A program made the position numbers and the translations under genes. From a virus (lineage: Duplodnaviria > Heunggongvirae > Uroviricota > Caudoviricetes), in the IMG/VR virus record IMGVR_UViG_3300032294_002926: a DNA stretch of 64,000 nt; one strand, written 5' to 3'. Positions 2,724 through 58,300 of the stretch are shown one piece after another. Below the pieces are notes generated by a model, which saw only the letters and a list, made by a program, of their open reading frames with translations, was not told where the DNA came from and did not search any database. The first letter of the stretch is position 1. Each line of letters opens with the position of its first letter.

Positions 2724-2753
2724 ACATAAATGATCGAATAAATACCATTAAAA

Positions 2754-3155: not shown

Positions 3156-3188
3156 TTCTAAATAATTTAGATTTAAATTTTTGAATAT

Positions 3189-8028: not shown

Positions 8029-8040
8029 AGACAATTAAAT

Positions 8041-8621: not shown

Positions 8622-8679
8622 TTATACTACTTGAGTTGTTTATTTTTGTAGTATAAAAACAATAACTCAGGTGTAAAAA

Positions 8680-29171: not shown

Positions 29172-29177
29172 CGAGGA

Positions 29178-33633: not shown

Positions 33634-34077
33634 ATGGAAAAACTTTTTAAACTTTTGAGTGATTCTCAATCCACGCTTTTTGTACTTTTTCAAAAAACTT
33701 GGATGTATCATTGGAATGTAGTTGGTTCGGATTTTCAACAATTACATACTCTTTTTGGGGACCAATACGAAAAAATGTTTGAAGAGATTGATTCACTCAC
33801 TGAACATATGAGATACTTGGGTATTAAACCTGTAAGTACTCTTTCTAGAATTGTAGAAGTATCTCATATTGAGCAGGCTTCAAATAGTTCTCAGGAAATT
33901 GATTCCAGAGAAATGGTTAGACAATTAAGAGATGATAATAAAAAAATCATTGATTTATTTTCTAGTGTTTCTGAAGAAGCAGATAAGCAAAAACAATTTG
34001 CAACTTCAAATCTTGTTCAGAGTTTAATGGAAACTCATGGAAAATTTCTGTGGATGTTAAGATCAGTATTAGAGTAA
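33634..34077 (+). CDS. dps: Dps-family ferritin-like protein (DNA protection during starvation)
   Basis: LFVLFQKTWMYHWNVVGSDFQQLHTLFGDQYEKMFEEIDSLTEHMRYLG matches the Dps ferroxidase-site helices. Confidence 0.75.
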   Translation: MEKLFKLLSDSQSTLFVLFQKTWMYHWNVVGSDFQQLHTLFGDQYEKMFEEIDSLTEHMRYLGIKPVSTLSRIVEVSHIEQASNSSQEIDSREMVRQLRDDNKKIIDLFSSVSEEADKQKQFATSNLVQSLMETHGKFLWMLRSVLE

Positions 34078-37895: not shown

Positions 37896-37898
37896 TTT

Positions 37899-39485: not shown

Positions 39486-39556
39486 AAAATAATAACTCTA
39501 TTTTACTAAATTTATTAAAATGATTAAGGATAAACTTCAAATGGATTTAAATTAAT

Positions 39557-40171
39557 ATGAAAATATCTAGAGAAAGATGGGAATATGCTCAAAGAGCAGA
39601 AATTTCTGAATTGAATGAAAGTACTGATCCTGGAGAAAAAGCATATAAGTATGCTGTAGAAGTAACTTTTAATCTTCTTGGTGCAGATTTACAAAAAGAT
39701 TTCAAAGATAAAGTTATTGTTGAAGTTGGTTGCGGATTTTACCCAGCTCTTCTTTGGACAAAAGATACCAAAAGATCTATTGGCGTCGATCCATTATTTA
39801 ATCAATGGCCTAAAAAATATATTGATAGGTGTAATGAGGCTAGAATTGAAATGATTTCTCATCCATATGAGGATCTTGAGATTGATGAGGATGTTGATGA
39901 AACCTGGTTTTTCAATTGTTTCCAACATGTTATTTCACCTGAAGAACAAATGATAAAATCTATGGAAACTTCTAAAGTTGTCCGTATTTTTGAACCAATT
40001 GGATGGGGGAATGGACTAAATTTAACTGAAAATGATGCTCATCCTCATATTATCACTAAAGAAACTATAATAGATATTATGGGGGATTTTGGATTTGTTT
40101 ATACGGCAAATTCGGTAGAAAAATTTCACCAAGCTGAATGTTATTACGGGACATGGAGTAAAACTAAATGA
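39557..40171 (+). CDS. Putative SAM-dependent methyltransferase-like protein (paralog A)
   Basis: VIVEVGCGFYPALL is a motif I-like glycine loop. Confidence 0.4.
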   Translation: MKISRERWEYAQRAEISELNESTDPGEKAYKYAVEVTFNLLGADLQKDFKDKVIVEVGCGFYPALLWTKDTKRSIGVDPLFNQWPKKYIDRCNEARIEMISHPYEDLEIDEDVDETWFFNCFQHVISPEEQMIKSMETSKVVRIFEPIGWGNGLNLTENDAHPHIITKETIIDIMGDFGFVYTANSVEKFHQAECYYGTWSKTK

Positions 40172-40761
40172 AAATCACTGAAGAACGTTGGGTACAAGCT
40201 CAAGAAGAAGAATTGAGATTGTCTTCTATTAATATTGATCCCAAATATTATGAGATGATGTATTTTACAATGGCAAAATTGATGAATATTGATTTTGATA
40301 CTGATTTTATCGGTAAATCAATAATTGAGATTGGACCAGGACCATTGGGTGTCACTCTCTTAACTGAGAAGTTTTCTAAGGCTATAATTGTTGAACCATT
40401 GATTTATAAATGGGGTCAAGAATACGTAAATCTTTACATGGAAAAAAATATCATTATTGAAACAACTCCTTATGAAAATTTGACAATTGAGGAAAAGGTA
40501 GATGAAACTTGGTTTTTTAATGTTCTTCAACACGTAATTGATCCAGAATTGCAACTAAGAAAAGCGAAAGAGACTTCAAAGGTAGTTAGAATTTTTGAAC
40601 CCATTAATTATCCTATTGAATTAGCCCACCCACATTTGTTGACAAAAGATTTATTTACTGGAATTTTTGGTGAAGATTTTGGCACTACTTACATTGGAAG
40701 TTCAATACCAAATTTTCATACAGCAGATTGTTATTATGGAACTTGGATTAATCCTGGGTGA
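40168..40761 (+). CDS. Putative SAM-dependent methyltransferase-like protein (paralog B, tandem duplicate)
   Basis: IIEIGPGPLGVTLL; shared C-terminus ...ETWFFN..QHVI.PE...K..ETSKVVRIFEPI...HPH..TKE....FG..CYYGTW. Confidence 0.4.
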   Translation: MKITEERWVQAQEEELRLSSINIDPKYYEMMYFTMAKLMNIDFDTDFIGKSIIEIGPGPLGVTLLTEKFSKAIIVEPLIYKWGQEYVNLYMEKNIIIETTPYENLTIEEKVDETWFFNVLQHVIDPELQLRKAKETSKVVRIFEPINYPIELAHPHLLTKDLFTGIFGEDFGTTYIGSSIPNFHTADCYYGTWINPG

Positions 40762-40764
40762 TCT

Positions 40765-41712
40765 ATGTACATAGCATCATGCCCTCTTAGAGTTTCTTTA
40801 TTTGGTGGATCAACAGACAATCCTTATTTTGTGGAAAAATTTGGATATGGATCTGTGATTAGTTTTACTTGTAATCTTAAAACTTATGTAACTATTAGTC
40901 AAGATAAATTTGGATTTAATAGTTATCAGCGCAAATATATTGTCAATTACTCAATAAGAGAAGAAGTGTCCAATATTCATGAGATAAAAAATGATGTGGT
41001 TAGAGTAGTTCTTGATTATTTCAATATGCCTCCAGTTCAAGTAACGCTTACAAGTGATGCATATTCTCAAGGTAGTGGTCTCGCATCTTCATCTTCTTAT
41101 ATTATTAGTTTGATTAAGGCATGTATTCTTTTTCTTGACATTCGTATGACGGATATAGAGATCTGTAAACTTGCCTATGAATTAGAATTGAAATTTAATT
41201 CATATTGTGGATATCAAGATCCTTACGGTTGTGGGATTGGTGGATTTAAAAAAATTGAATTTATTAGGGGTGGAGGTGTTAAATATGATTTTCTCTCCAC
41301 TAAAATGTTTAATAATTATGATGCTCATTTAGTTTTTACTGGAGTTACAAGAAACTCAAAAAATGTTTTAAAAGATATTACAGATAATATCGATAAAGCA
41401 AAACCACTTTTGGGTACACTTGACAAATCCTATAATGCAATTATGCAAGATGATTATGGAACTTTTTTAAATTATCTGAATAAAAGTTGGATTCAAAAAA
41501 AACATACTAGTTCAACTATTACTGAAAACTTAATTATTAAAAATATGGATCAATTTTTGAGTGAAAATGGGACTGTAATATCTCATAAATTATGTGGTGC
41601 GGGTAATGGTGGATTTTTTCTTGTTTTCTCTGAAAAAGGAAACTTGAATATTTCCTATCAATCTGTTAAAATAGATGTAACACCTAATGGAGTTTCTGGG
41701 AAAATGCTATGA
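40765..41712 (+). CDS. GHMP-family sugar kinase (D-glycero-D-manno-heptose 7-phosphate kinase HddA-like)
   Basis: PLRVSLFGGSTDNPYF N-terminal motif; SQGSGLASSSS ATP-binding P-loop of GHMP kinases. Confidence 0.6.
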   Translation: MYIASCPLRVSLFGGSTDNPYFVEKFGYGSVISFTCNLKTYVTISQDKFGFNSYQRKYIVNYSIREEVSNIHEIKNDVVRVVLDYFNMPPVQVTLTSDAYSQGSGLASSSSYIISLIKACILFLDIRMTDIEICKLAYELELKFNSYCGYQDPYGCGIGGFKKIEFIRGGGVKYDFLSTKMFNNYDAHLVFTGVTRNSKNVLKDITDNIDKAKPLLGTLDKSYNAIMQDDYGTFLNYLNKSWIQKKHTSSTITENLIIKNMDQFLSENGTVISHKLCGAGNGGFFLVFSEKGNLNISYQSVKIDVTPNGVSGKML

Positions 41713-42212
41713 ATCCATTTATAGAATATATTGAAGCACTTCAGGGTGCTCATATAGAAGAAGAGTTTGAAAAATTTTATAATGCATTTATCTCTTATTC
41801 AAGAATTATTATTCTCGGTAATGGCGGAAGTAATTCTGTGGCGTCTCATATTTCGCAAGATTATATGAAGTTTCATGGAAAAAAGGTATCTATTCTTTCT
41901 GATCCTTCAATGCTAACCATGTTGACAAATGATTTTGGATATGAGAATGCTTATCAAAAGTTTTTAGAGTATTATGTTGAAAAAGATACACTTGTAATTA
42001 TTGTGAGTTCTGGTGGGGAGTCTAAAAATATGATAAATTCTCAGAAATGGTGTGAAAAAAACAATGTTCCATATGGGGTTCTGACTGGTTTTAAACCGGA
42101 TAATACACTAAGAAAAACTTCAACAAATTCTCTATGGAATTACTATATTAGTAGTTATGATTATGGTGTCGTAGAATGTGTACATCAAATTTTTCTTCAC
42201 GGAGTAGTATGA
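41709..42212 (+). CDS. gmhA: Sedoheptulose-7-phosphate isomerase (SIS domain, GmhA)
   Basis: ILGNGGSNSVASHISQD matches GNGGSAADAQH of GmhA. Confidence 0.65.
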   Translation: MNPFIEYIEALQGAHIEEEFEKFYNAFISYSRIIILGNGGSNSVASHISQDYMKFHGKKVSILSDPSMLTMLTNDFGYENAYQKFLEYYVEKDTLVIIVSSGGESKNMINSQKWCEKNNVPYGVLTGFKPDNTLRKTSTNSLWNYYISSYDYGVVECVHQIFLHGVV

Positions 42213-42964
42213 GATATTGTTTTGATATTGATGGTACTCTTTGTGATACTCCAAATAATGAATTCGGCAAACCTGATTATATGAACGCAAAACCTGTTTC
42301 ATTTATGGTGGAACAAGTTAACCGTTTATATCATGAAGGTCATTATATTATTATGCAAACTGCAAGAGGTAAAGGATCCGGTATAGATCATACGGACCTT
42401 ACTAAAAGTCAATTAGATGAATGGGGGTACAAATATCATGAGTTATTTCCCATGTTCTCTAAACCAACTGCAGATATTTTTGTAGATGATAAAGCAATAA
42501 ATGTGGAAGATTGGAAAAAAATGCAACCATTGAAGTCCGGAATTATTGCTGGTGCATTCGATATAATTCACCCTGGATATATCCGTATATTTAAAGAATC
42601 TAAATTTTATTGTAATCATTTAACTGTGGCACTTCATGAAGATCCTTCTACAGAAAGATTAATTAAATTAAAACCAGTTCAAACAGTAGAAGAAAGAAAA
42701 GAAATACTTCAAAGTATTAAATACATTGATAAAATAGTTACATATAAAGTAGAAAATGAATATCTTGACTATTTGAAGAGTGGTAATTATAATGTTAGAT
42801 TCTTGGGTACAGATTATAAGACAAAAATTTATTCTGGATCAGAGATACCAATTGATATTGTGTGGTTGGACAGAGAATCGCATGATTATTCTTCAACTAG
42901 ATTGAAGAATCAAATTTATGAATCCATAAAAGCAAAAAAAGAACAAATTAAAAAATATGACTAA
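42176..42964 (+). CDS. Bifunctional HAD-like phosphatase / heptose-1-phosphate nucleotidyltransferase (cytidylyltransferase fold, HldE domain II-like)
   Basis: N-terminal FDIDGTLCD (HAD motif I); C-terminal IIAGAFDIIHPGYIRIFKESK (GxFDxxHxGH nucleotidyltransferase). Confidence 0.55.
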   Translation: MCTSNFSSRSSMRYCFDIDGTLCDTPNNEFGKPDYMNAKPVSFMVEQVNRLYHEGHYIIMQTARGKGSGIDHTDLTKSQLDEWGYKYHELFPMFSKPTADIFVDDKAINVEDWKKMQPLKSGIIAGAFDIIHPGYIRIFKESKFYCNHLTVALHEDPSTERLIKLKPVQTVEERKEILQSIKYIDKIVTYKVENEYLDYLKSGNYNVRFLGTDYKTKIYSGSEIPIDIVWLDRESHDYSSTRLKNQIYESIKAKKEQIKKYD

Positions 42965-43856
42965 AAGTTTAGTAACTGGTGGTGCTGGATTTATTGGATC
43001 TAATTTAGTAGATTCATTAATTGATCTCGGGCATGAAGTTATTGTAATTGATAATGAGAGTGCTGAGTGTAATGAAAAATTTTATTGGAATGATAAAGCA
43101 AAAAATTATAAATTAGATATTTGTGATTACGAATTTACTAGAGACTTGTATAATGATGTAGATTATGTCTTTCATCTTGCAGCTGAATCAAGACTTCAAC
43201 CTGCAATTTTAAATCCAATTAATGCAGTGATAAAAAATACTGTAGGTACTTGTACTGTTCTTCAATGTTCTAGAGAGTCTGGAGTTAAAAAGGTAATGTA
43301 TTCATCTACATCTTCTGCTTATGGTCTGAACAAATTTCCAAATTATGAAACTGATCCCAATGATTGTTTGAATCCATATTCAGTATCAAAAGTTTCTGGT
43401 GAAGAACTTTGCAAACTTTATACGAAAATGTATGGATTGAAAACAATTATTTTTAGATATTTTAACGTTTACGGTGATCGATCTCCAACTACAGGACAAT
43501 ATGCACCAGTTATTGGAATTTTTAAGAGGCAAAAAGAAAATAATCAATCATTGACTATCGTTGGTGATGGTCTTCAACGTCGAGATTTTGTAAATGTTAA
43601 AGATGTTGTTGATGCAAATATTATGGTAATGTCTGCTGATATTGCAGATTTTTGTTATGGTGAAGTTTATAATATTGGTAGTGGAGTAAATATTTCAATT
43701 TTAGAAATTGCTAAAATGATATCCGATGATTATATTCATCTTCCATCAAGAGACGGTGAAGCAAGGACAACACTTGCTAATATTGATAAGATGAAAAAAA
43801 CTTTTGGATGGTATCCAAAAATAAACATACTGGATTGGATTAATGGACAAAAATAA
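42957..43856 (+). CDS. NAD-dependent sugar-nucleotide epimerase/dehydratase (SDR family)
   Basis: LVTGGAGFIGSNLVDSL Rossmann motif; YSVSK catalytic YxxxK. Confidence 0.75.
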   Translation: MTKSLVTGGAGFIGSNLVDSLIDLGHEVIVIDNESAECNEKFYWNDKAKNYKLDICDYEFTRDLYNDVDYVFHLAAESRLQPAILNPINAVIKNTVGTCTVLQCSRESGVKKVMYSSTSSAYGLNKFPNYETDPNDCLNPYSVSKVSGEELCKLYTKMYGLKTIIFRYFNVYGDRSPTTGQYAPVIGIFKRQKENNQSLTIVGDGLQRRDFVNVKDVVDANIMVMSADIADFCYGEVYNIGSGVNISILEIAKMISDDYIHLPSRDGEARTTLANIDKMKKTFGWYPKINILDWINGQK

Positions 43857-44634
43857 ATCAGCATATAAACTTCAAAATCTTCCTCCGATTTATTATATTA
43901 ATCTGGATGATCAACCAGAAAGAAAAGAATATATGGAAGAACAGTTTAAATATTGGGAAATTGAAAATTACACTCGTATCTCAGCGTATGATGGTCGTAA
44001 TGATGACCTAAGTGACTTTCTTAAAGGGAAATACCCAGATGGAATGTCTTCTGGTGAAGTTGGATGTACATTATCACACTTAAAAGCAATTCAACATTGG
44101 TATGATACTACTGATTCATCTTATGCTCTTTTTTTAGAGGATGATGTAAATTTTGATTTGGTCAAATTTTGGAATTTTACTTGGAAAGATTTTATTTCTA
44201 AGATTCCTTATGATTGGGATGTAATTCAATTGGCAATTATTTGCACTGGTGATCTTCATATTAAACTTCACAAAAGATTTATAAATGATTTTTCTACTGC
44301 TGCTTATATTTTAACGAGACATCATGCAGAAAAACTTCTTAAGTTTCATGTTAAAAATGGAAAGTATAAATTAGATCAAGGAGTTAGACCTAGAGCAGTT
44401 GCAGATGATCTAATTTATAACTCAGGTAATACTTTTTCTATTCCTTTGTTTCTTTATAGAATTGAATTGGGTTCATCTATTCATCAAGAACACATTGATG
44501 TTTATCATCGTTCTAGTCATCAAGGATTGTTGCAATTTTGGCAGAATCAAGGATTCAATATGAAAATTGATGATTTGATGAATTATGACCCATATCTAGG
44601 TCGGATCACAGGAACATTTGAATTAAATCAATGA
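43843..44634 (+). CDS. Glycosyltransferase family 25 (LPS/LOS glycosyltransferase)
   Basis: IYYINLDDQPERKEYMEEQF matches the GT25 N-terminus. Confidence 0.6.
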   Translation: MDKNKSAYKLQNLPPIYYINLDDQPERKEYMEEQFKYWEIENYTRISAYDGRNDDLSDFLKGKYPDGMSSGEVGCTLSHLKAIQHWYDTTDSSYALFLEDDVNFDLVKFWNFTWKDFISKIPYDWDVIQLAIICTGDLHIKLHKRFINDFSTAAYILTRHHAEKLLKFHVKNGKYKLDQGVRPRAVADDLIYNSGNTFSIPLFLYRIELGSSIHQEHIDVYHRSSHQGLLQFWQNQGFNMKIDDLMNYDPYLGRITGTFELNQ

Positions 44635-45538: not shown

Positions 45539-45859
45539 ATGAATTCTATTATTGCTTGTAATCCCAACACATCACCAAAGACTCTAGAATCTCTAGTGAC
45601 TGATGAGGACTGGTGTGTTCGTTATGAAGTTGCTCGTAATCCCAACACATCATCAGAGACTCTAGAATCTCTAGCGACTGATAAGGATTGGAGTGTTCGT
45701 GTGGGAGTTGCTTCTAATCCCAACACATCATCAAAGACTCTAGAATCTCTAGCGACTGATGAAGATTGGGAGATTCGTATGTTAGTTGGCGAAAATCCAA
45801 AGTCATCAGAACTTGCACGACGACTGGTTCTGATGACAAATAATAAACCGTCCACCTGA
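45539..45859 (+). CDS. HEAT-repeat (PBS-lyase HEAT-like) protein, three ~33-aa repeats
   Basis: Repeated D(E/K)DW.VR..VA.NPNTSS.TLESLAT units. Confidence 0.55.
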   Translation: MNSIIACNPNTSPKTLESLVTDEDWCVRYEVARNPNTSSETLESLATDKDWSVRVGVASNPNTSSKTLESLATDEDWEIRMLVGENPKSSELARRLVLMTNNKPST

Positions 45860-45911
45860 GTTCTTCAGAACTCTCAGGTGTCTTATACTTTTTTAATTCA
45901 ACTCTTGAGTT

Positions 45912-46268
45912 ATGTATTTTTATCAAAAAATCGAACTTGCTGAAAATCCCAACACACCATTAAAAACTCTAGAAATCTTAGCGACTGATCATGATTGGCG
46001 TGTTCGTGATGGAGTTGCTTCTAATCCCAGCACATCATCAAAAATTCTAGAATTTTTAGCAACTGATGAGGACTGGTGTGTTCGTTATGAAGTTGCTGAA
46101 AATCCCAACACATCATCAAAGACTCTAGAATCTCTAGCGACTGATACCGATTTTTATATTCGTAGCGAAGTTGCTTATAATCCCAACTCAACTGAACTTG
46201 CAAGAAGACTGGTTCTGATGACAAATAATCGATCAGTAAGTAAACTGTCACAGTGCTCATCAAACTAA
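45912..46268 (+). CDS. HEAT-repeat (PBS-lyase HEAT-like) protein, tandem paralog
   Basis: Same repeat unit and the same C-terminal ELARRLVLMTNN. Confidence 0.55.
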   Translation: MYFYQKIELAENPNTPLKTLEILATDHDWRVRDGVASNPSTSSKILEFLATDEDWCVRYEVAENPNTSSKTLESLATDTDFYIRSEVAYNPNSTELARRLVLMTNNRSVSKLSQCSSN

Positions 46269-46341: not shown

Positions 46342-47856
46342 GTGAAAATCGACCAATTCACAATCAACTTGGAGAACATCATGACTTTTATTACTGCATT
46401 AGAAAATGAACTGAATACCACCGAGACTTTGAATGGAGCAAAAGCATATTCTTCGACTTTGAATTATTGCCTAGATCTTTTTGGTAAGATCGGATCATGT
46501 CGTAATGATATGAATCAAGCAAAGAAACTCTTTGCTCGCGCTTATCAAGTAAATCCTGAAACTGCTACTCGTATTTTGTTCTGGGTGCGCGATATTCGGG
46601 GTGGGCAAGGTGAACGTGAAGTTTTTCGTCAACTATTTAAATATCTTGTAGAACAGGATTCACAAATTGCCGTAAAACTTGTTTCTCTAGTGCCTGAATA
46701 TGGTCGTTGGGATGATCTTCTTATTCTGGAGGATACTTCTGCATGGGAAGCAGTTCTTGATCTTATCAAAACTCAATTACTTCAAGATGTTGCAGTTCTT
46801 GCTGATCAATCATCTAATCAAGTAAGTTTAATTAGCAAATGGTTGCCTTCAATCAATGCTTCTAGTAAAGACAGTAAGCGTTTAGGGCGTAAGATTGCAT
46901 CTTATCTTGGTATGACAGAACGTCAGTATCGTCAAACTCTGTCGAAACTCCGTAATCATATTAAGATTATTGAAACTGCAATGTGTTCTAGAGAATGGTC
47001 TGCAATTGACTATTCAAAAGTACCTTCTCGTGCTTCATTTATGTACCGTAAGGCATTTGCAAAGCAGGATGCAACTCGTTATGCTCAGTATCTGAGTTCT
47101 GTTGAAAAGGGTGAAGCAAAAATCAACGCTGCAACTCTTTATCCTTATGATATTGTTTATCAGTATCTCCACAACGGTGCTCGTAACGATAAGACTATTG
47201 ATCTTCAATGGAATGCTCTGCCTAATTATATGGGAGATCAAACTTTCAACGGTCTAGTAGTTGCAGATGTTTCAGGGTCTATGTATGGTATGCCTATGGC
47301 AGTTTCCATCTCTCTTGCGATGTATATTGCAGAACGCAATACCTCTCCTGCTTGGAAAAATAAGTTTCTAACTTTTTCTGCACAACCTAAATTGCAAACT
47401 ATTGTTGGTTCTACGATTGGAAAACGTATTGAGAATCTTTCCCGTGCTGATTGGGATATGAATACTGATTTGATTGCAGTATTTAAAACTATTCTAAGCG
47501 CAGCTGAGAAAAACTCTGTTGCATCCGAAGACATGCCTCAGAAATTGATTATTGTTTCTGATATGCAATTTGATCGATGCTGCTTTTCTAATAAGAGAAC
47601 TAATTTTGAGCAAATTCAAAAACTCTATCGTAAGGCGGGTTATGAGATGCCTCAATTGGTATTCTGGAATGTGAATTCTCATTCAAACGTTCCTATTACC
47701 TCTCACGATACTGGTACTTGTCTTGTGTCCGGTTGTAGTCCTTCTATTCTTAAAACCGTACTTACTGGTGGTACTCTGTCACCTGTTGACATTATGAACG
47801 ATGCGGTGTATAATAACAGGTATGATGAGATCGGTCGAGTCTTTAACACCCCTTAA
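46342..47856 (+). CDS. von Willebrand factor A (vWA/MIDAS) domain protein
   Basis: LVVADVSGSMYG is a MIDAS DxSxS motif preceded by a hydrophobic beta-strand. Confidence 0.5.
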   Translation: MKIDQFTINLENIMTFITALENELNTTETLNGAKAYSSTLNYCLDLFGKIGSCRNDMNQAKKLFARAYQVNPETATRILFWVRDIRGGQGEREVFRQLFKYLVEQDSQIAVKLVSLVPEYGRWDDLLILEDTSAWEAVLDLIKTQLLQDVAVLADQSSNQVSLISKWLPSINASSKDSKRLGRKIASYLGMTERQYRQTLSKLRNHIKIIETAMCSREWSAIDYSKVPSRASFMYRKAFAKQDATRYAQYLSSVEKGEAKINAATLYPYDIVYQYLHNGARNDKTIDLQWNALPNYMGDQTFNGLVVADVSGSMYGMPMAVSISLAMYIAERNTSPAWKNKFLTFSAQPKLQTIVGSTIGKRIENLSRADWDMNTDLIAVFKTILSAAEKNSVASEDMPQKLIIVSDMQFDRCCFSNKRTNFEQIQKLYRKAGYEMPQLVFWNVNSHSNVPITSHDTGTCLVSGCSPSILKTVLTGGTLSPVDIMNDAVYNNRYDEIGRVFNTP

Positions 47857-47894
47857 TAGGGGTTGACAAACTCAGATTTTCATCTTATAATCTC

Positions 47895-48069: not shown

Positions 48070-48189
48070 CGGGGGGTGGCCTAATTGGAAAAGGCAACAG
48101 TTAAAAATTTATCTAGATTATAGATAATAACAGCAATTAATAAACCACTAAGAAACAGTTTATTGTAGGTTCGAGTCCTACTCCCCCGA
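48070..48189 (+). ncRNA. tRNA-like element (120 nt) with canonical acceptor, D-arm and T-arm but a ~50-nt AT-rich insertion in place of a recognisable anticodon arm
   Basis: cgggggg/tcccccg acceptor; D-arm gcct-aattggaaa-aggc; T-arm gtagg-ttcgagt-cctac; no complementary anticodon stem found. Confidence 0.3.
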
Positions 48190-48489
48190 ATAAAGATGAG
48201 ACAGCAATTTAATACACAACATATATTCTCATATTTGTTTTAAATTCTCATCTTGTTTACACTCAAAAAGTGTCTTTTGATTATTGGAGGTACATATTTT
48301 TTATTTTATCATAATTTTTGTTTTTTATATAATGTTTACAAGTAACCGTTGGTATTTTAGGTAATAGGCACTTATTATCTAAGATACCAATTTTTTTTTT
48401 TAGAAAGAGTAAACTTCTCTTTGGATTCTTAAACAATCTGAATAAAGTTAAAAAGTATTTTCACTATTTTTGATATAACTTATTTTTTT

Positions 48490-50025
48490 ATGAAATTCAA
48501 TCACAAAATTGCAAGTCTAATCATTCCTGCAGTTATTGCTTCTTCTTCTTCTTTTCTTCCAGTAGAAAGTGTGAAAGCAGATGTAGTTCCTCTAAACACG
48601 CAATCACAGGTATCTAAAGCATCAGAATCTCCAGTATTCTTTATTCTTAAATATGCATTGTTGTTTGGAGGTGTATCAGGAACTTTGTTGATTTTGATAT
48701 CTTTCTTTTTCAGAAAAGTTGTCAATACCAACATGGTCCATATTGTTCAGAATGGTAAAACTACAGTTCCTTATGGATCAAATTTGCCTAATGGAAATGT
48801 TTATTATGAAATTCCTTCCTGGGTTCCAAAGTTTGGTGTTTCTGTTATCAAACTTCCGGTAAATAATTTTGATCTGTCTCTTCAAGATTATGAAGCTTAT
48901 GATGAAGATAGAGTTCCTTTTTTGGTAGATGTTACGGCATTTTTTAGAATCATTGATCCCACTGTTGCATCTCAAAGAATTTCTAACATCTCAAGTCTTG
49001 AACAGCAATTGACACTCATCGTTCAGGGTGCTGTGAGAAGGGTTCTCGCCTCTGAGAAAATTGATAACATCATGACTCAAAGATCTACTTTTGGTGAGAG
49101 TTTTTCGAATGAAGTTAGAGATCAATTAGCTGAATGGGGAGTAAGTTCTGTGAGAAATATGGAACTTATGGACATTCGTGATTCTCCTAAATCTTCGGTA
49201 ATTTCTAATATTATGGCTAAAAAGATCTCAGAGATTGAGAAAGATAGTCGTATTACTGTTGCTGAGAATAATCGTCTAGCAACTGTTGCTGAAGTTGAAA
49301 ATAAGCGTACATCTGAAATTTCTTCAGTGGAAGCAAATCGTGAAATCGCACTCAGTAAACAACTTGCTGAACAACAAGTTGGAGAAAGATCTGCTGAGAA
49401 AGATAAAGTAATTGGTATAGCACAAGAACAATCAAAGCAACAAGTTCTTCTGCAACAAGCTGAGACCAAAGAAAAGGATCTTGCAGTTCAGAGAGTTCAA
49501 GAAATCAAATCCGCTGAAATTACACGAGACAGAGCACTTGTTCAGGCTGAAGAATTGCAAAAAGTTGCTAAAATTAGTAAAGAAACTGCATTGATTGAGG
49601 CATCTCAGCAAAAAGAAACTTCTATTCTTATTGCTGATGGTAAGTTGGAATCCGAGAAAAGAAACGCTGAAGCTATTCAGACTACTGGTATTGCTAAGGC
49701 AGAAGCTGATAAAGCTATGCAACTTGCACCAGTTAGTGCTCAAATTGCTCTTTCACAAGAGATTGGTAATAATGAATCTTATCAGAAGTATCTTGTTCTC
49801 GTTGAAGCACTTAAATCTTATATGTCTGTAGGTGTTGAACAAGCTAAGGCACTTCAATCTGCGGAAGTTAAGGTTATTGCCAATGGTGGATCTACCTCTG
49901 ATGGTGTGAAAAATGTGATGGATCTCTTTAGTTCTAAAGGTGGAACTTCTCTTGCATCTGCATTTGAAGCATTTGCTCAAAGTGATCTTGGGGCAGATTT
50001 GTTGAATAAAATTACTCAATCTTGA
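48490..50025 (+). CDS. SPFH/Band-7 (flotillin-like) membrane protein with a long C-terminal coiled coil
   Basis: Signal/anchor plus a second transmembrane helix; SPFH core PFLVDVTAFFRIIDP...; extended E/A/Q/K-rich coiled-coil tail as in flotillins. Confidence 0.6.
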   Translation: MKFNHKIASLIIPAVIASSSSFLPVESVKADVVPLNTQSQVSKASESPVFFILKYALLFGGVSGTLLILISFFFRKVVNTNMVHIVQNGKTTVPYGSNLPNGNVYYEIPSWVPKFGVSVIKLPVNNFDLSLQDYEAYDEDRVPFLVDVTAFFRIIDPTVASQRISNISSLEQQLTLIVQGAVRRVLASEKIDNIMTQRSTFGESFSNEVRDQLAEWGVSSVRNMELMDIRDSPKSSVISNIMAKKISEIEKDSRITVAENNRLATVAEVENKRTSEISSVEANREIALSKQLAEQQVGERSAEKDKVIGIAQEQSKQQVLLQQAETKEKDLAVQRVQEIKSAEITRDRALVQAEELQKVAKISKETALIEASQQKETSILIADGKLESEKRNAEAIQTTGIAKAEADKAMQLAPVSAQIALSQEIGNNESYQKYLVLVEALKSYMSVGVEQAKALQSAEVKVIANGGSTSDGVKNVMDLFSSKGGTSLASAFEAFAQSDLGADLLNKITQS

Positions 50026-50125
50026 TATTTGTAGGAAGCGAACACCTCTCTTTGGGTTCTTTGAGAAACTGAATGAAGTGAAAGAGGAGAATTACTTGCG
50101 CTTTAGACTCTCCCTCCTACCCCAT

Positions 50126-50197
50126 ATTCGGGTAGTCTAGTGGTCAGGACGAGCAGACAATGCATATGGAGTTCGGGTTCGATTCCCGATCCGAATA
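50126..50197 (+). pseudogene. Degenerate tRNA-like sequence (Glu/Asp-type D-arm, canonical T-arm, no pairable anticodon stem)
   Basis: Acceptor attcggg/tccgaat; D-arm gtc-tagtggtcag-gac; T-arm tcggg-ttcgatt-cccga; central region agcag-acaatgc-atatg cannot pair. Confidence 0.3.
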
Positions 50198-50221
50198 TTT
50201 GACTAAATATTTATTATCTTT

Positions 50222-50292
50222 GCGGATATAGTGTAGTGGTAACATATGATCCTTCCAAGTTCCAGTCACGGGTTCGAATCCCGTTATCCGCT
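50222..50292 (+). tRNA. tRNA-Gly (anticodon UCC)-like, homologous to T4 tRNA-Gly, with a weak anticodon stem (3/5 pairs)
   Basis: gcggata...tatccgc acceptor identical to T4 tRNA-Gly ends; anticodon loop cuUCCaa; T-arm acggg-ttcgaat-cccgt. Confidence 0.5.
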
Positions 50293-50517
50293 TTCAAATC
50301 TCATGAGTCCGCTGAGTACAAATACGGATTGTCAGGATCTCATGATGGTGTTATGATAAGTACATCGGAAAAAAGGAAAACCTGATTCTGATACTCCCGT
50401 TAACCGAGACCTATGGGGAGTCTAAACACGTCTCTTATCTTGCCTTCTCTTGAGGGTGGAGAAGGAAAATAACGTAAAGAATCTTCCCTAGATTCACTTT
50501 ATTTTCTTTAAATTCTT

Positions 50518-51597
50518 ATGACTGCTACAATTGCTACACGTTCACAAAGTAACGCTTGGGAAGATTTTTGCCAGTGGGTTACTTCAACCAATAATAGGTT
50601 GTACGTTGGGTGGTCGGGAACCATTATGATTCCTTGCCTTCTTGCTGCTACTATTTGCTTTATTCTTGCTTTTATTGCAGCACCTCCCGTTGACATAGAT
50701 GGCATTAGAGAACCTGTTGCTGGGTCTCTTATGTGGGGGAATAACATTATCTCGGGTAATGTTATTCCAAGTTCTAATGCTATCGGACTTCATTTTTATC
50801 CTATCTGGGAAGCACAATCTCTTGAAGAATGGTGTTACAACGGAGGTGAATATCAACTCATCATCTTCCATTTTCTAATTGGTATTTGGATGTATGCTAT
50901 GAGAGAGTGGGAACTTTCTTACCGTCTTGGAATGCGCCCTTGGATTTTTGTTGCATATTCTGCTCCTGCCATTGCAGCAACTGCGGTATTTCTTCTTTAT
51001 CCTATTGGTCAAGGTTCTTTCTCTGATGGTATGCCTCTGGGTATTTCTGGAACCTTTAATTTTATGCTTGTCTTCCAAGCAGAACATAATATCCTTATGC
51101 ACCCCTTCCATCAAATGGGAGTTATCGGTGTTTTCGGTGGTGCTTTTGCTGGAGCAATGCATGGTTCCCTCGTAACCTCTTCAATTGTTCGTGAAACCAC
51201 TGAGACTGAATCTCAGAACTATGGTTACAAGTTCGGACAAGAGGAAGAAACTTATAACATTGTTGCTGCACATGGTTATTTCGGTCGTCTTATTTTCCAA
51301 TATGCGTCCTTCAATAACTCACGTTCACTACATTTCTTCCTTGCTGCACTTCCTGTAATTGGCATTTGGTTTACTTCTCTTGGCATTGCCACTATGAGTT
51401 ATAACCTCAACGGGTTTAACTTCCAACATAGTGTTCAAGATGCACAAGGACGAGTTATTCCTACTTGGGCAGATGTTCTCGGAAGAGCAAATTTGGGTCT
51501 AGAAGTCATCCACGAACGTAACGCACACAATTTTGCATTGGATTTGGCGACAGTATCAACTACAGAAGTAGCACTCATTGCACCTGAAATTGGTTGA
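50518..51597 (+). CDS. psbA: Photosystem II reaction-centre protein D1, full length and uninterrupted
   Basis: 359-aa product with diagnostic D1 motifs ([10 protein letters not shown]..., [26 protein letters not shown], ...ALIAPEIG). Confidence 0.95.
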
Positions 51598-51669: not shown

Positions 51670-52266
51670 ATGATAACATATATTGCAACAAATACTTTGA
51701 ATGGAAAGTTTTATATTGGAAGCACTTTTAATTTTGAAAGAAGAAAACAAGAACATTTAGAATCAAAAAATAATTATCCATTTCAAAACTCTCTCCGTAA
51801 AAATCCAGATAAGTTTGAATGGGAAACTTACATTGATGAATATGATGAACCAATTTTAGAGCAATCATTATTGGATGTGTGGTGGGGGAAGTCGCAATGT
51901 TATAATATAAATCAATATGCTTCTCGTCCACCAGACCCAACGGGAAGAATTCTTAGTAAAGTGTCAAAAGATAAAATAAGTAAAAAATTAAAGGGTAGAG
52001 TAATAAATGAAAAAACTAGAAAGGCAGTTTCATACTCAAATAAAACTAGACATCTTAATGAAGAAACTTTAAAGATAAAATCTGATGCTATACTTGGAGA
52101 AAAGAACCCATTTTATGGAAAAAAACATAGTGAAGAAACTATTCGTAATTTATCCGAAAAAAGAAAAGGTTTAAAATGGTGGTATAATGAGAAAACTAAA
52201 AAAACTTGTATGTCTAAAGAATTGCCGGGTGAAGGATGGAGACGGGGTAGAAAATACTCATCTTGA
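51670..52266 (+). CDS. GIY-YIG homing endonuclease with NUMOD3-like DNA-binding repeats, immediately downstream of psbA
   Basis: MITYIATNTLNGKFYIGST (GIY-YIG); repeated ..KNPFYGKKHSEETIRNLSEKRKG.. NUMOD3-like units. Confidence 0.65.
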   Translation: MITYIATNTLNGKFYIGSTFNFERRKQEHLESKNNYPFQNSLRKNPDKFEWETYIDEYDEPILEQSLLDVWWGKSQCYNINQYASRPPDPTGRILSKVSKDKISKKLKGRVINEKTRKAVSYSNKTRHLNEETLKIKSDAILGEKNPFYGKKHSEETIRNLSEKRKGLKWWYNEKTKKTCMSKELPGEGWRRGRKYSS

Positions 52267-53220: not shown

Positions 53221-54048
53221 ATGACCATTGAAGATAAAATAAAAGAATTTCAAAAATGTAAAGATGATCCAATATATTTTATCAATACTTACGTGAAATG
53301 TGCATCACCACAATCATCACAATCAATAGTAAAACTTTATGATTATCAAGAAGATATCATAAGAAGATATCATAATAATCGATTTACTATTGTAAAAGGC
53401 TGTAGACAATCTGGAAAATCATTCACTGGAATTTTATATATTCTTCATTATATTCTTTTTAATGAAAATGTAATTGTAGGACTTTTTTCTCATAATCGAT
53501 CAGCTGCTGTAGATCTGTTAACTAGACTATCAGACATTTATCTAGAACTTCCGAGTTGGATGAGAATGGAAGTGATTAAATATAACAAAACAGAACTTGA
53601 ACTTGGAAATGGATCTAAAATCTGTGCATCATCTGTGAATCTAACTTCAGCACATGCAACTATTTTTGATTTAATTTTTCTTGATGAATTTGCATTTGTG
53701 AATGATGAGATTGCAGGAAATTTTTGGGAAATGATGATTCCCACAGTTTTTTCTAGAAGAACAAAACTTATTGTTTCTTCGACTCCTTTTTATAGTCATA
53801 AACTGACTGTAGATGATGAAGGTAACATCATTACTATTAAAGTTCCAACTCTTTTTTATGTTTTATGGATTGATGCAATATTTGGAAGAAATACCTTTAT
53901 TCCTTATGAGATTTCTTGGAGGATTTTACTTCCTGAAAAGGATGAGCAATGGAAAGAAAAACAAATTGCTTATATTGGTAAAGACAAATTCGACAATGAA
54001 TATGAATGTAAATTTTTAGACAATGTTTCAACTTCTAATATTTTTTGA
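53221..54048 (+). CDS. Terminase large subunit (T4 gp17-like) ATPase domain only; the nuclease domain is absent
   Basis: DYQEDIIRRYHNNRFTIVKGCRQSGKSFTGI (Walker A), LIFLDEFAFV (Walker B), IVSSTPF (motif III) align to T4 gp17 residues ~130-290. The ORF ends where the gp17 nuclease domain should begin, with no continuation in any frame. Confidence 0.65.
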   Translation: MTIEDKIKEFQKCKDDPIYFINTYVKCASPQSSQSIVKLYDYQEDIIRRYHNNRFTIVKGCRQSGKSFTGILYILHYILFNENVIVGLFSHNRSAAVDLLTRLSDIYLELPSWMRMEVIKYNKTELELGNGSKICASSVNLTSAHATIFDLIFLDEFAFVNDEIAGNFWEMMIPTVFSRRTKLIVSSTPFYSHKLTVDDEGNIITIKVPTLFYVLWIDAIFGRNTFIPYEISWRILLPEKDEQWKEKQIAYIGKDKFDNEYECKFLDNVSTSNIF

Positions 54049-54087
54049 ACTCTTTGGACTGTTCCTTTTCATTATGTCTCTGTTTCC

Positions 54088-54116
54088 TTGACATAATTCT
54101 GAATACTCGCTAAAAT
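54088..54116 (+). promoter_or_regulatory. Sigma-70-like promoter (TTGACA-17 nt-TAAAAT)
   Basis: ttgaca taattctgaatactcgc taaaat ~75 nt upstream of the 54195 ATG. Confidence 0.4.
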
Positions 54117-54194
54117 ACTTATAGATTCGTGATGCAAATGAATTATCGGAAAGAAACACTTAGAGAATATACTGAAAGAGACTGAAAAAATATT

Positions 54195-54896
54195 ATGTAC
54201 GATGCAACTTTTATAAGCGATGTTCATCTCGGATCTCCTAGATGTAACACGAAAAAGTTTTTAAAATTTTTGAAAGAACTTCAAACTAAAAAACTAATAA
54301 TGGTGGGTGATATTATAGACATCTATTGTATGGAGAAATATAATACTCGCTGGACAAAAGAACATACTGAATGTGTTCATCAGATTTTAGAACTTCTCAA
54401 AAAAGGCACGGAAGTTGTTTATATTCTTGGAAATCATGAGGCACAAATTCGTAGATACTGTAATTTTTCTCATGAAAATTTTAAGATGGTGAATGAATAT
54501 ACTCATATGGATTCAAGAGGAAATAAGATTCTTTGTGTTCATGGAGATAAGTATTCGCAGTATTCATCTGGTTCCTGGAAACAATTGTTATTTAATAAAG
54601 GATATGAATATATTACTCCAATGAGTGTATTTTTAGAAAAATTTTTAAAAATTTCTTTGATTCATATTCTTAAAAATACGTCTCGTGGTAGAAAATATAT
54701 TAATCATTATGAGACTGATATTGCATCATATGGTGTTCGAAGAGAAGAGAAATATAATGGAATAATTTGTGGACATATTCATCACGCAAAGATTCGAGAA
54801 TTTGGTACAATCACGTATATGTGTTGTGGAGACTGGTGTGATCAATGTACGTATATTACAGAAATGAATGGCGAATATAAATTATTATTTTATTGA
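54195..54896 (+). CDS. Calcineurin-like metallophosphoesterase (LpxH-like layout)
   Basis: ISDVHLGSP, MVGDIID, GNHE, HGD, GHIH motifs. Confidence 0.6.
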   Translation: MYDATFISDVHLGSPRCNTKKFLKFLKELQTKKLIMVGDIIDIYCMEKYNTRWTKEHTECVHQILELLKKGTEVVYILGNHEAQIRRYCNFSHENFKMVNEYTHMDSRGNKILCVHGDKYSQYSSGSWKQLLFNKGYEYITPMSVFLEKFLKISLIHILKNTSRGRKYINHYETDIASYGVRREEKYNGIICGHIHHAKIREFGTITYMCCGDWCDQCTYITEMNGEYKLLFY

Positions 54897-54936
54897 TTCA
54901 AATAGTACAATAAATAATCATAAGTCTCGGTAACTT

Positions 54937-55272
54937 ATGGATCTTCTCCATTCTCCCTCAGAGTATTTGTTTAATTTACACACAACAAGTTCGGCAGAAG
55001 CAAAAAAAATATGGAGAAATCAAATAAAACAAAGATGGAATTACAAATGTGCTTATTGTGATTCAGAGAAAAATCTGACAATCGATCATATTATACCTCA
55101 GTCGAAGGGTGGAACAAATTTTACAACAAATGTTCTTTGCTGTTGTCATTCTTGTAATCAATCAAAAAATCATACTCCTTGGGAAGAATGGTATACATCT
55201 CAGAGTTTTTTCTGTGAGAATCGATTCTCTAAAATTAAAAAATGGATGAATATGAATCTACCTGAAAATTAA
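54937..55272 (+). CDS. HNH endonuclease (McrA/HNH_5-like; paralog of 31344..31823)
   Basis: CAYCDSEKNLTIDHIIPQSKGGTNFTTNVLCCCHSCNQSKNH. Confidence 0.7.
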   Translation: MDLLHSPSEYLFNLHTTSSAEAKKIWRNQIKQRWNYKCAYCDSEKNLTIDHIIPQSKGGTNFTTNVLCCCHSCNQSKNHTPWEEWYTSQSFFCENRFSKIKKWMNMNLPEN

Positions 55273-55342: not shown

Positions 55343-58300
55343 ATGTCAACACGTATTAGACTAAAGAGGTCTTCTGTACCCGGAAAAATACCTTTACCAG
55401 GTCAACTAAAAAATGCGGAAGTCGCTTATAATACGTATGATGGTGAATTATATGGAAAAAGAGAAAGAGTAGGAATTGGAACTGATATTGTTCGCATTGG
55501 ATCAGGTGCAACAGTTACAAATATTCTTTATGTTACAGAAGATGGAAAAGACGAAAACACAGGTAAAAAACTCGGAGACGCAAAAGCGACAATTAAAGGA
55601 GCAATCGCAGCAGCAACAACAGGAACAGTTATTAAAGTTAGTGCTGGATCTTATATAGAAGATAATCCTTTAATCATACCGGAACAAGTTTCTATTGTAG
55701 GAGATTCTCTTCGAGAAGTGTCAGTATCTCCATTAAATGCGAATCAAGATTTATTCTATGTTTCAAATGGAAATTATGTTGCAGAAATGTCTTATACTGG
55801 ATCATTGAATTCGGGTAAGGCAATTTTTGCATTTAATTCAGAACAAATTGGATATTTTGATCAGTCTCCATATATTCAGAATTGTACGAATTTTATTCCT
55901 AATAGTATTGGTTTAAAAATTGATGGTAACAATGCAATAGGACCATTAAAATCAATGGTTCTAGATAGTTATACTCAATATAATCAAGGAGGTATTGGTG
56001 TTTCTATCACCAATGAAGGATATGCTCAATTGGTATCCTTGTTTACAATTTGTTGTGATGTTGCAGTTTATTGTGGATCAGGTGCAGCATGTGATCTTAC
56101 AAACTCAAATTCTTCTTTTGGTAACTATGCTTTAGTTGCAAATGGTACAAGCCCAAAAAAATATTCTGGAATTATTACACAAAATTCATTAGAAAATGAT
56201 GACACCTTTGTTATAGATTTAAATACGCCAACTTTAAATGTCACAAATGCTTTATATGATAATACTTCTGGAATTTTAACTGCATATACAAGTACTCCTC
56301 ATAACTTTTCAGTTGGAATGGGAGTTTCTTTATCCAATTTACAATTTACTTGTCAGGGAATTGGAGGAATAAACACTTATCCAAGTGGAAAATATGGTTA
56401 TATTTTTGAAGTTAAAACTGTTGCTCCAGGAAGATATGTAGACTCTTATAATTTAATTCAAAATAATAAATTAGAAATTCAGGATAAATCTTTAGCGGCA
56501 ATTGCATTAAATCATCCAGATTTCATTTTTCCAGGAAATTCATCATCTGATTTAAGATATCGATATTATGATTCTTATCGTTTGATTCAAAAAAATAAAC
56601 AAGAAATTGTAGATAAATCTCTTGCTTCTATTGCAGTTGGATTTCCTTCTAATTTTAAATTTCCGGATGATCCAGTTCCATTTGAAAGAAATCGTTTTTA
56701 TGATGCATCTGGATTAATTCAAAGAAATAAACAAGAAATTATTGATAAATCAATTGGGGCAATTGCAATTGCTCATACGAATTTTTATTTTCCAGGAGAT
56801 TTTCAAACAAATTCAAGATCTCGTTATTTTGATTCTTATCGTTTAATTCAAAAAAATAAGAATGTAATTGTTTCTATTGCATGGACAAATACTGTTTCAG
56901 TTTATCCTGAAATTTCAAGCACTCAGAATAAATGTAAAAGGGATTTAGATTTTTTTGTAGATGCAATTTCTGCTGATGTTTTAACGGGTGGTAATAATTA
57001 TTCTAGAGAGTTTACTTTACAATACTTTAATAATGGATCTTTAATTGTAAATGGATTATTGGGTGAGCAGACTCAATCAAATTATGCTTTTAATCAAGTT
57101 AGAAATTTGATGAAAAATGCAGTCACAAATACTCTTGTTGGTGCAGCATATAGTGATCTTTCAATTACTCCAGATTCCTTAACTGGTTTCAATACTTCTC
57201 CAAATTCTTGTGCAGACGTAAGATCAAATATTGATAATCTAGTTTCAATTGTAACTACCTCTATAGGATCAGGTAATACAAGTTCTCTACCTTCTCCAAA
57301 TTTTGGATATTTTGTTGGTATAGGTAGTACAAGTTCTCCAGGTGGATTAAAATGTGCGAGAGATCTTGGTTTTATGATTGAAGCAATCTCTACGGATATT
57401 TTTACTGGTGGAAATAAGTATTCGAGAGATTTTACTCTTCAATATTTCAACAATAATTCTCCAATTTCAAATGGATTATTGGGTGAAGAATCACAATCTA
57501 TTACTGCATTTCTTTCTGCAAGTGAATTTGCGAAGAAAGCAGTTACGAATCAATTGAACATTAAAAATTTGGGAATTAGTTCCGGTCCTGCAATTTACAA
57601 TGGTCCTGGTATTGCTTATACTGTCTATGCTTCAGGTAATCCAGATTCTTGTGCAGATGTAAGATCGAATATTGATAATTTAGTTGGAATTATTACCACT
57701 GTAATTGGTGCAGGTAGTACCGTTAGTCTTCAGATTTTTAATGAAAATCTTGGAATTTCAACTACAAATATTTGTGCAAGAGATTTATCATATCTTGTAG
57801 ATGCGATTTCTACTGATATTTTTACAGGAGGTAACAAGTACTCTAGAGACTTTACTGATTTTTATTTCAATGGGGCATCTTCTGTTGGAATTGGTACAAG
57901 TGAAAGACTTCAATCTGTATATGCATTTAATACTTTGGGTACTTATGCAAAAAAAGCAATTACGAATCAATTGAATTATAAAGAAATTGGAATTAGTTCT
58001 GGACCTGCAAATTATAATTCCGGTGGACCAAATATTCCTGTATTACCTTCAGGAAATTCTGAATCCTGTACTGATGTTCAAAGTGCAATTAATACTCTTG
58101 TGGGAATTGTAACAACTGTTATCGGAAGTGGATCACAGTCTTTTCTGAATACTTTTAGTGAAAATTCAGGCACTTTCTCATTAGGTATTAGTAAATGTTA
58201 TAGAGATATTGGTTATTTAATTGATGCATTATCTTTGGATGTGCGAGATTATACAAATGAGAATATTCGCGACTTTATAAGTGGATATTTTAATGCAAAT

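Follow-up and report, generated by a model that had tools for sequence, protein, structure and literature searches.

A predicted SPFH scaffold protein with a flotillin-like build encoded by a T4-like cyanophage

Introduction

Flotillins, stomatins and the HflK/HflC complex are among the SPFH proteins of solved structure with which the gene described here can be compared. This gene lies on the plus strand at 48490..50025 (stop codon included) of a 64,000-nucleotide stretch of DNA, IMG/VR virus record IMGVR_UViG_3300032294_002926, to which we refer as the window, and it encodes a protein of 511 amino acids with an ATG start. A preliminary description, made from the letters of the DNA alone, had presented it as a flotillin/SPFH membrane-scaffold protein of a cyanophage.

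The flotillin-1/2 cage (PDB 9bq2, 9l3g) and the FloT/YqiK proteins consist of a membrane anchor, an SPFH domain, a long charged helix rich in alanine and glutamate, and C-terminal helices joined by a strand (PMC11260169), and the parts of the window protein follow the same order. Flotillin-1/2 are also the only solved structures that align through its tail. However, identity to flotillins is only 18-21%, and the anchor of the window protein is predicted to be a true transmembrane (TM) helix instead of the hairpin or lipid anchor of flotillins. The best sequence and profile matches to its SPFH core are stomatin and Escherichia coli QmcA (PDB 9oh9, 8z5g), which differ in having much shorter tails (255-305 amino acids in total). 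QmcA has an N-terminal TM helix and a cytoplasmic SPFH domain, as predicted here. QmcA works with the NfeD protein YbbJ, and FloT operons of the YuaF-FloT and YqiJ-YqiK type likewise include an NfeD-family partner, whereas no such gene was found in the flanks of the window locus. The HflK/HflC-FtsH complex (PDB 7vhq, 7wi3, 9cz2) is built on the same SPFH cage principle and is connected historically with phage biology and with FtsH (PMC9950537), but the match is weaker, at 14-20% identity, the complex is a hetero-oligomer, and the SPFH domain lies in the periplasm.

The nearest named relatives come from cultured large phages: proteins of Xanthomonas phages BUDD and X1 (annotated ‘SPFH domain-containing protein’), of Brevundimonas phage Bambus (‘flotillin protein’) and gp118 of Vibrio phage Thalassavirus (‘hypothetical protein’). 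They belong to the same subfamily as the window protein, with an SPFH core, a helical tail and a C-terminal module, and their genes too lie in accessory, tRNA or nicotinamide adenine dinucleotide (NAD)-salvage regions. Unlike the window protein they have a single N-terminal TM helix and about 430-460 amino acids, and none is from a cyanophage; the clade of the window protein has, in addition, a signal-like segment, a linker and two insertions in the helices. The closest proteins outside that clade (52-59% identity) are a cellular SPFH subfamily of about 445-460 amino acids found in Patescibacteria, Rhodobacterales (Cypionkella, Frigidibacter), Caulobacterales and Bdellovibrionales. From the TM helix on, their architecture is identical to that of the window protein and the gene likewise stands alone, but they have a single TM helix, no signal-like segment and neither the 11- nor the 18-residue insertion, and their genes are chromosomal, without phage context.

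SPFH open reading frames (ORFs) have been listed in T4-like phages since 2006 (PMC1524935). In a full-text literature search that combined cyanophage with SPFH-family terms, we found no paper describing an SPFH protein in a cyanophage, and the searchable literature yielded no tested function for any phage or giant-virus SPFH/flotillin gene.

Results

The gene product is predicted to be an SPFH protein of flotillin-like build

Judged by its homologues, the ORF is real and not a chance one, because a search of a large protein database returned 1922 homologues at E<=1e-5, the best at 73% identity; a record of an identical protein exists from a 236 kb contig. Pfam assigned Band_7 (PF01145) to residues 78-261 (48721..49272, plus strand) with 61.5 bits against a cutoff of 23.6 (E 1.4e-16), covering profile positions 3-175 of 176. 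No other Pfam family scored above its cutoff in the protein, and hence no dedicated family for a flotillin tail was found. Searching the sequences of PDB entries with phmmer gave matches to QmcA (1e-11), stomatins, flotillin-1 (residues 177-425) and erlin-2. In a profile search the core was closest to stomatin and QmcA, while through the tail flotillins alone aligned.

We also built an AlphaFold2 monomer model from an alignment of 79 sequences. Its mean predicted local distance difference test score (pLDDT) was 76, with the SPFH core above 90, a TM helix at residues 48-73 and small C-terminal helices. When the model was compared with the PDB by Foldseek, the top 45 of the 50 matches listed were SPFH cage-formers (stomatin, flotillin, QmcA, prohibitin, HflK/C, erlin); the other five comprised three more SPFH entries and two chains of the major vault protein. 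Against crystal structures of the stomatin SPFH domain, the target-normalised TM-score was 0.80-0.86 with a root-mean-square deviation of about 2 Å, and among the matches listed the longest alignments (408-447 columns) were those to flotillin-1/2. The domain is directly preceded by a predicted membrane anchor, the hydrophobic helix 49-75. The profile match, the modelled fold and this predicted anchor all place the protein in the SPFH superfamily, and we thus describe the gene product, on the evidence of its sequence, as a phage-encoded SPFH scaffold protein with a flotillin-like build.

The preliminary description had given the ORF exactly, including strand and start, and had assigned it an SPFH/Band-7 core, naming a missing SPFH profile match as the outcome that would speak against it; the Band_7 match agrees with that assignment. 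It had further ascribed to the protein the architecture of bacterial flotillins. The flotillin-like build holds, but the protein is not an orthologue of FloT, as it scores 42.1 bits with the NCBIfam equivalog NF058507, for which the cutoff is 700. Taken together, this is a sound annotation of a known sort of viral accessory gene, and it brings no surprise.

The N-terminus carries two hydrophobic segments, the second followed by R75-K76

Hydropathy analysis revealed two hydrophobic segments, at residues of about 7-25 and 49-75, so that the signal anchor plus TM helix of the preliminary description is a fair account of the N-terminus. Residues 1-30 (48490..48579, plus strand) resemble a signal peptide, with an n-region bearing K2 and K6, the h-region IASLIIPAVIAS and a c-region that ends in V-K-A|D, a putative cleavage site. 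They are followed by a linker rich in serine, threonine, glutamine and proline (residues 31-48; 48580..48633, plus strand), which is poorly conserved, varies in length in the alignment and is modelled with a pLDDT below 50. The second segment (residues 49-75; 48634..48714, plus strand) contains the hydropathy maximum of 2.19 and coincides with the model helix 48-73 (pLDDT about 87); it is followed by R75-K76, and R75 is invariant in the alignments. By the positive-inside rule, these two residues after the TM helix predict a cytoplasmic SPFH domain, and the linker would accordingly lie outside the cytoplasm.

Assignment to the HflK/HflC type, which has N-in/C-out topology and paired K and C genes, was considered and rejected, as R75-K76 predict a cytoplasmic domain and the gene is single, with no paralogue nearby.

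A long charged helical tail ends in a conserved C-terminal module

The model contains helices at residues 237-335, 350-427 and 429-457, that is, about 220 helical residues, and together with the alignments it supports a long charged alpha-helical tail rich in glutamate, alanine, lysine and glutamine (residues 237-457; 49198..49860, plus strand). An AxAxAE..LAPV.AQ motif at residues 402-418 is invariant in the alignments.

Residues 458-511 (49861..50022, plus strand) form a conserved C-terminal module of about 55 residues, which begins with a strand-like VKVIANGG motif and continues with GGT..A..EAF helices. Outside the SPFH core the highest conservation is found in this strand and these helices, where V460, K461, I463, A464, N465, G467, F480, G484, G485, T486, E493 and A494 are invariant or nearly so. 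A conserved C-terminal strand with helices mirrors the oligomerisation module of flotillins (PMC11260169), and the module is thus a putative oligomerisation cap.

The subfamily is scattered, and the clade of the window protein is tied to cyanobacteria

A tblastn search at E<=1e-3 found no match to the SPFH gene in cultured cyanophages; 52 records did match, from Vibrio T5-like, Xanthomonas, Brevundimonas, Ralstonia, Erwinia and Salmonella phages, and among the matches listed these cultured-phage relatives show about 45-51% identity over nearly their full length (85-91% of it for the Xanthomonas, Brevundimonas and Vibrio proteins). The protein database contains a tight clade of metagenomic sequences around the window protein (63-74% identity, about 515-540 amino acids, on contigs of up to 272 kb) and a second tier at about 55% identity and about 450 amino acids, which includes Paracoccaceae, Patescibacteria and Deltaproteobacteria. 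IMG/VR added 30 loci, many of them on contigs of 200-517 kb, and genomes representing species added 72 loci, from Patescibacteria, Rhodobacterales, Caulobacterales, Bdellovibrionales, Thermomicrobiales and others; SPFH proteins of giant viruses and of many phages are also present in BFVD. The survey shows an SPFH subfamily that, as judged from these homologues, occurs here and there in large phages and, patchily, in bacteria. In a neighbour-joining tree the clade of the window protein is monophyletic and adjoins copies from cellular genomes, apart from a second viral clade (loci L017-L035).

What sets this clade apart is its N-terminus. All 26 aligned members have an N-terminal part of about 80-105 residues that consists of signal-like n, h and c regions, a variable linker and then the TM helix, and all 26 have an AXA-type site at about residue 24-31, whereas each of the 51 scorable sequences outside the clade has a single TM helix 31-41 residues from the start without a signal-like segment. 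In the tail, the alignment shows two further clade-specific helical insertions, which in the window protein comprise 11 residues (about 269-279) and 18 residues (about 355-372). As these lengths are near whole helical turns, the insertions would lengthen the helix and leave it on the same face. Members of the clade carry the JGI label ‘flotillin’.

The clade can be connected with cyanobacteria in three ways. First, the window comes from a cyanophage. In a second member, contig P0030, a CP12 gene precedes the SPFH gene at a distance of 1.4 kb, and the DUF2828 gene found in the window recurs nearby. The third member (locus L098) is the 4.4 kb contig CAMAPJ010000138.1, binned with the metagenome-assembled genome of the freshwater Synechococcus sp. 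UW140; at 2458-3662 it bears a truncated, frameshifted SPFH copy of 68% identity in an island of 46-50% GC, with flanks of 65-69% GC that contain DUF4351 and glycosyltransferase genes. Provided that this small contig is not chimeric, the copy has the appearance of a remnant that a phage left in the genome of its host. We considered a cyanobacterial origin of the clade and rejected it, as this decayed copy in its low-GC island is the only one found in a cyanobacterial genome, and transfer from phage to host fits it better.

Elsewhere in the clade the ORF is intact across at least eight contigs of 33-48% GC, at 63-74% amino acid identity, while the flanks are otherwise mostly unrelated; the GC content of the SPFH gene has adapted to each genome while the flanks diverged. 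On these comparisons, identity maintained across diverged contigs would count as a sign of selection. What is new here is modest, namely a cyanophage-associated clade with a distinctive N-terminus and insertion context.

Neighbours of the gene vary. Clustering of the genes next to 72 cellular and about 28 viral copies gave nothing conserved except antisense artefacts. Genes for nicotinamide-nucleotide adenylyltransferase (NMNAT) or nicotinamide phosphoribosyltransferase (NAMPT) adjoin the SPFH gene in Bambus and at loci L008 and L009, an ATP-grasp gene adjoins it in BUDD, and GSP_synth/DUF1190 genes adjoin it at loci L002, L004 and L114. The GSP_synth and DUF1190 genes (ATP-grasp in BUDD) lie within about 10 kb of the SPFH gene, at L002 19173-21293, L004 4825-6810, L114 1-914 and L110 7365-8171, and PMC1524935 lists them close to the SPFH ORF of Aeromonas phage 44RR as well. 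Neither a GSP_synth nor a DUF1190 gene was found in the 64 kb window. In Vibrio phage GRLPWR the SPFH homologue lies inside a tRNA cluster.

Within a tRNA array, the gene resembles an inserted cassette

Just upstream of the SPFH gene the window encodes a DUF2828 protein that is 72% identical to gp345 of Synechococcus phage B3 (Kyanoviridae, 245 kb). In B3, DUF2828 is followed by a conserved promoter block, spacer repeats, an insertion-bearing tRNA-like element and directly by a tRNA array that includes tRNA-Gly(TCC), and no SPFH gene is present in this DUF2828-tRNA region. The layout of the window is that of B3 with the SPFH ORF added.

A direct repeat of 59 nucleotides brackets the ORF (family D1 of the repeat search): copy 1 at 48397..48455 (plus strand) ends 35 nucleotides before the ATG, and copy 2 at 50028..50086 (plus strand), 76% identical to it, starts 3 nucleotides after the stop codon. 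The motif occurs exactly twice in the 64 kb window, with no occurrence expected by chance, and it is absent from all other fetched loci. Because the repeat brackets the ORF and the syntenic tRNA array of B3 lacks the gene, the SPFH gene looks, from this comparison, like a cassette inserted into a tRNA array. On the other hand, the repeat is partly similar to the spacer repeats of the B3 array, so that it might belong to the array spacers instead of marking an insertion.

Upstream, a consensus scan found a terminator-like hairpin with a T-run (48348..48401, plus strand) just before repeat copy 1, which probably terminates a tRNA-like transcription unit. The tRNA-like element itself (48070..48189, plus strand), missed by ARAGORN at default settings, scores 39.7 bits with the Rfam tRNA model and has an insertion of about 48 nucleotides; in its intron mode, ARAGORN returned a poor tRNA-Val(aac) model for it. 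It is 75% identical to the B3 region that holds an annotated ‘tRNA-Pseudo-GCA’ (locus L115, about 8404-8513), and since it is conserved across phages, the comparison suggests that it is functional, possibly as an intron-bearing or otherwise atypical tRNA. Between the SPFH gene and psbA, ARAGORN and Rfam identified tRNA-His and tRNA-Gly(TCC) (50125..50292, plus strand), and the 3' half of the latter is 83% identical over 46 nucleotides to the tRNA-Gly of B3. It needs to be mentioned that for tRNA-His (50125-50198, plus strand; Rfam tRNA 40.5 bits) ARAGORN reported the anticodon ATG, with A at position 34, and not the usual GTG.

Two perfect sigma70 consensus promoters (TTGACA-17-TATAAT) are located at 47786-47814 and 47863-47891 on the plus strand, at the end of the DUF2828 gene and just past it. 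The GGGGTTGACAA block is kept in B3 ahead of its tRNA array. Upstream of the clade members we found no consistent common promoter motif: sigma70-like sites precede the gene at loci L002 and L113, and in the window the stretch from the hairpin to the ATG offers only weak ones.

psbA is a neighbour only on the contig of the window

The preliminary description had placed psbA next door, and the gene indeed lies at 50518-51597 (plus strand; the D1 gene in the ORF list), about 490 nucleotides downstream of the SPFH gene. Between the two genes are tRNA-His, tRNA-Gly and, in the psbA 5' leader, the PhotoRC-II RNA motif (50381..50478, plus strand; Rfam RF01717, 55.6 bits against a gathering score of 39). 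The SPFH gene and psbA are thus separate units, because two tRNAs and psbA’s own PhotoRC-II leader intervene.

Co-occurrence with psbA in other phages, which the preliminary description had proposed as a check, was not borne out. At the 34 other loci searched with tblastn, where the flanks extended to at most 10 kb per side and less at contig ends, psbA was absent, and the gene tables of three more contigs of the clade list no Photo_RC gene, so that among the loci tested the proximity exists only on the contig of the window. The proximity to psbA is best explained by an accessory region that holds both of these accessory genes. As the adjacency is not conserved, as tRNAs and a leader intervene, as relatives occur in phages of non-photosynthetic hosts and as the gene looks like a cassette, a link to photosynthesis is unsupported, and so is the role in photosystem II (PSII) repair zones that had been suggested from the psbA neighbourhood. 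Membership in a psbA-linked photosynthesis module was accordingly rejected.

The psbA gene itself has at most about 75-77% nucleotide identity to any cultured cyanophage psbA, and the encoded D1 has an unusual C-terminal extension.

The window belongs to a T4-like cyanomyovirus

The name ‘cyanophage’, used already in the preliminary description, is justified by psbA with its PhotoRC-II leader, an hli-like ORF, an SLH-OprB porin, the terminase and synteny with Synechococcus phage B3; the window is from a T4-like cyanomyovirus. The hli-like ORF was recognised by eye from its ExxNxRxAMxG motif and has no Pfam match. The N-terminal domain of the terminase is 41-43% identical to those of T4-like cyanomyoviruses. 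A ribonucleotide reductase, a tyrosyl-tRNA synthetase and NAD-salvage genes are also encoded.

Several of these genes have features of their own. In the porin ORF (500 amino acids, 32059-33561, plus strand), an SLH domain precedes an OprB carbohydrate-selective porin domain, which is the typical architecture of a cyanobacterial outer-membrane porin, here encoded by a phage. In the region 53221-55272 (plus strand) the large terminase is represented by an ORF for its N-terminal ATPase domain alone (275 amino acids, Terminase_6N), which is followed by Metallophos and HNH genes and by a 1331-amino acid ORF without Pfam match (55343-59338), so that the terminase may be split or interrupted. The NAMPT gene also appears split (27712-30014, plus strand): NAMPT_N at 27712-28248, an HNH/NUMOD4 homing endonuclease at 28518-29162 and the NAPRTase catalytic domain at 29178-30014, according to ORFs and domains. 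The large subunit of ribonucleotide reductase (10120-12867, plus strand) contains an intein (PT-HINT/Intein_splicing match, residues of about 322-524). The load of homing-endonuclease genes is unusually high (51670-52266, 18553-19149, 31344-31823 and 54937-55272), with a GIY-YIG/NUMOD3 gene directly after psbA, one LAGLIDADG gene and two more of the HNH type. Clade member L037 has a copy (7778-8947) of 48% identity to the tyrosyl-tRNA synthetase gene of the window (21073-22254, plus strand), located about 1 kb upstream of its own SPFH gene. Further accessory genes (33634-34077, 16249-16758, 45539-46268 and 36277-44634) comprise a ferritin-like gene, a YkuD L,D-transpeptidase, two LRV/HEAT-repeat ORFs and a sugar-nucleotide/glycosyltransferase cluster of about 8 kb.

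Discussion

We lean, with some reserve, towards an oligomeric SPFH scaffold or cage on the host membrane that would support infection in a general way. In such a mechanism the first hydrophobic segment would act as a Sec-type signal, either cleaved after V-K-A or kept as a first helix, and the second would span the host membrane, be it the plasma membrane or the thylakoid, with R75-K76 holding the SPFH domain and the tail on the cytoplasmic side. As in all SPFH proteins of solved structure, many copies could then line up, joined by their charged helices and C-terminal caps, and the resulting ring or cage would enclose a patch of the membrane. This might keep the membrane intact and energised through a long infection, or it might corral host membrane proteins such as proteases and transporters. 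A general role is favoured because Vibrio, Xanthomonas and Brevundimonas phages have relatives (40-50% identity, 85-91% of the length) and psbA is absent at the 34 other loci; a photosynthesis-specific, psbA-tied job is less likely than general membrane support.

Several observations weigh against the scaffold. The monomer model has a low-confidence break at residues 329-349. A crude Fourier test gave no significant 3.5-residue hydrophobic periodicity for residues 237-457 (p 0.2), reaching p 0.05 for residues 429-457 only; of the coiled-coil tail of about 250 residues in the preliminary description, the long helix therefore stands, at about 220 residues, while a classical heptad coiled coil is not shown. 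The PHROGs search of the protein gave no match and thus no viral-family label to transfer, and a PADLOC search gave no family at E<=0.01 and no defence label. No conserved neighbour hints at a client protein, and an NfeD partner was found neither in the flanks of the SPFH gene, with ORFs down to 20 amino acids considered, nor near the viral and the 72 cellular loci. Finally, the reason why phages carry SPFH genes is still called unclear (PMC13239085; likewise PMC13384950).

An alternative close to the membrane is that the protein serves competition or counter-defence, by excluding superinfecting phages or by buffering the cell against abortive-infection effectors that depolarise or perforate the membrane. 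We regard this as unlikely, though worth keeping in mind. The gene lies in accessory or early-type regions rich in small unknown genes, its spread over unrelated large phages and bacteria is patchy and cassette-like, and in several phages GSP_synth and DUF1190 or ATP-grasp genes are close by. These families are found in a PspA-type envelope-stress operon of E. coli. PMC8581546 describes recruitment of PspA by a Bacillus subtilis SPFH protein in membrane repair. However, the window has neither GSP_synth nor DUF1190, PADLOC returned nothing, and the protein resembles no known exclusion or anti-defence family. It may also be asked whether the gene is a neutral passenger, a cellular SPFH gene captured recently and carried without benefit. 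The cassette look with its flanking repeats, the grouping of the clade with bacterial-genome copies in the neighbour-joining tree and the decayed copy at L098 would fit such a history. We nevertheless hold it to be very improbable, as the ORF has stayed intact at 63-74% identity on at least eight contigs of 33-48% GC, its GC content fits each genome while flanks diverge, the derived features of the clade are kept in all 26 aligned members, and the gene has been retained independently in several phage lineages.

The psbA neighbourhood invites a more specific proposal, in which a cage on the thylakoid would gather FtsH or intermediates of PSII repair and so let phage D1 efficiently take the place of damaged host D1. 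According to a review (PMC9950537), the host SPFH proteins Slr1128 and Slr1106 are found in association with PSII subunits and with FtsH2/3, and in E. coli FtsH is enclosed in a cage of HflK/C. The distance to psbA of about 490 nucleotides, the CP12 gene 1.4 kb upstream in the second clade member and a clade-specific signal-like segment that could in principle target thylakoids point the same way. On the other hand, HflK/C meets FtsH on the periplasmic side, and the cytoplasmic topology predicted here is the opposite. Moreover, the psbA adjacency is unique to the contig of the window, with no psbA at the 34 other loci tested and no Photo_RC in the three further clade tables, tRNAs and the PhotoRC-II leader divide the genes, the subfamily is common in phages of non-phototrophs, and the gene appears as an insertion into a tRNA array. 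We consider such an organiser of D1 turnover improbable. More doubtful still is the extended form of the idea, namely that the signal-segment clade is a cyanophage-specific version of a generic phage flotillin, whose N-terminus directs it to the thylakoid or to convergence zones of thylakoid and plasma membrane, where its cages would organise PSII repair and FtsH-dependent D1 exchange with phage psbA. If it were true, the gene would be a structural, and not an enzymatic, auxiliary photosynthesis gene.

For the general scaffold that we favour, the material at hand is suitable for experiment: the window and Synechococcus phage B3 make a clean pair with and without the gene, and culturable relatives in Vibrio and Xanthomonas phages make a knockout feasible. 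If such proteins do set up membrane compartments under viral control in bacteria, this would parallel the exploitation of flotillin and raft domains by eukaryotic viruses, and it would bear on how one models the upkeep of host membranes and of photosynthesis by cyanophages in the course of infection.

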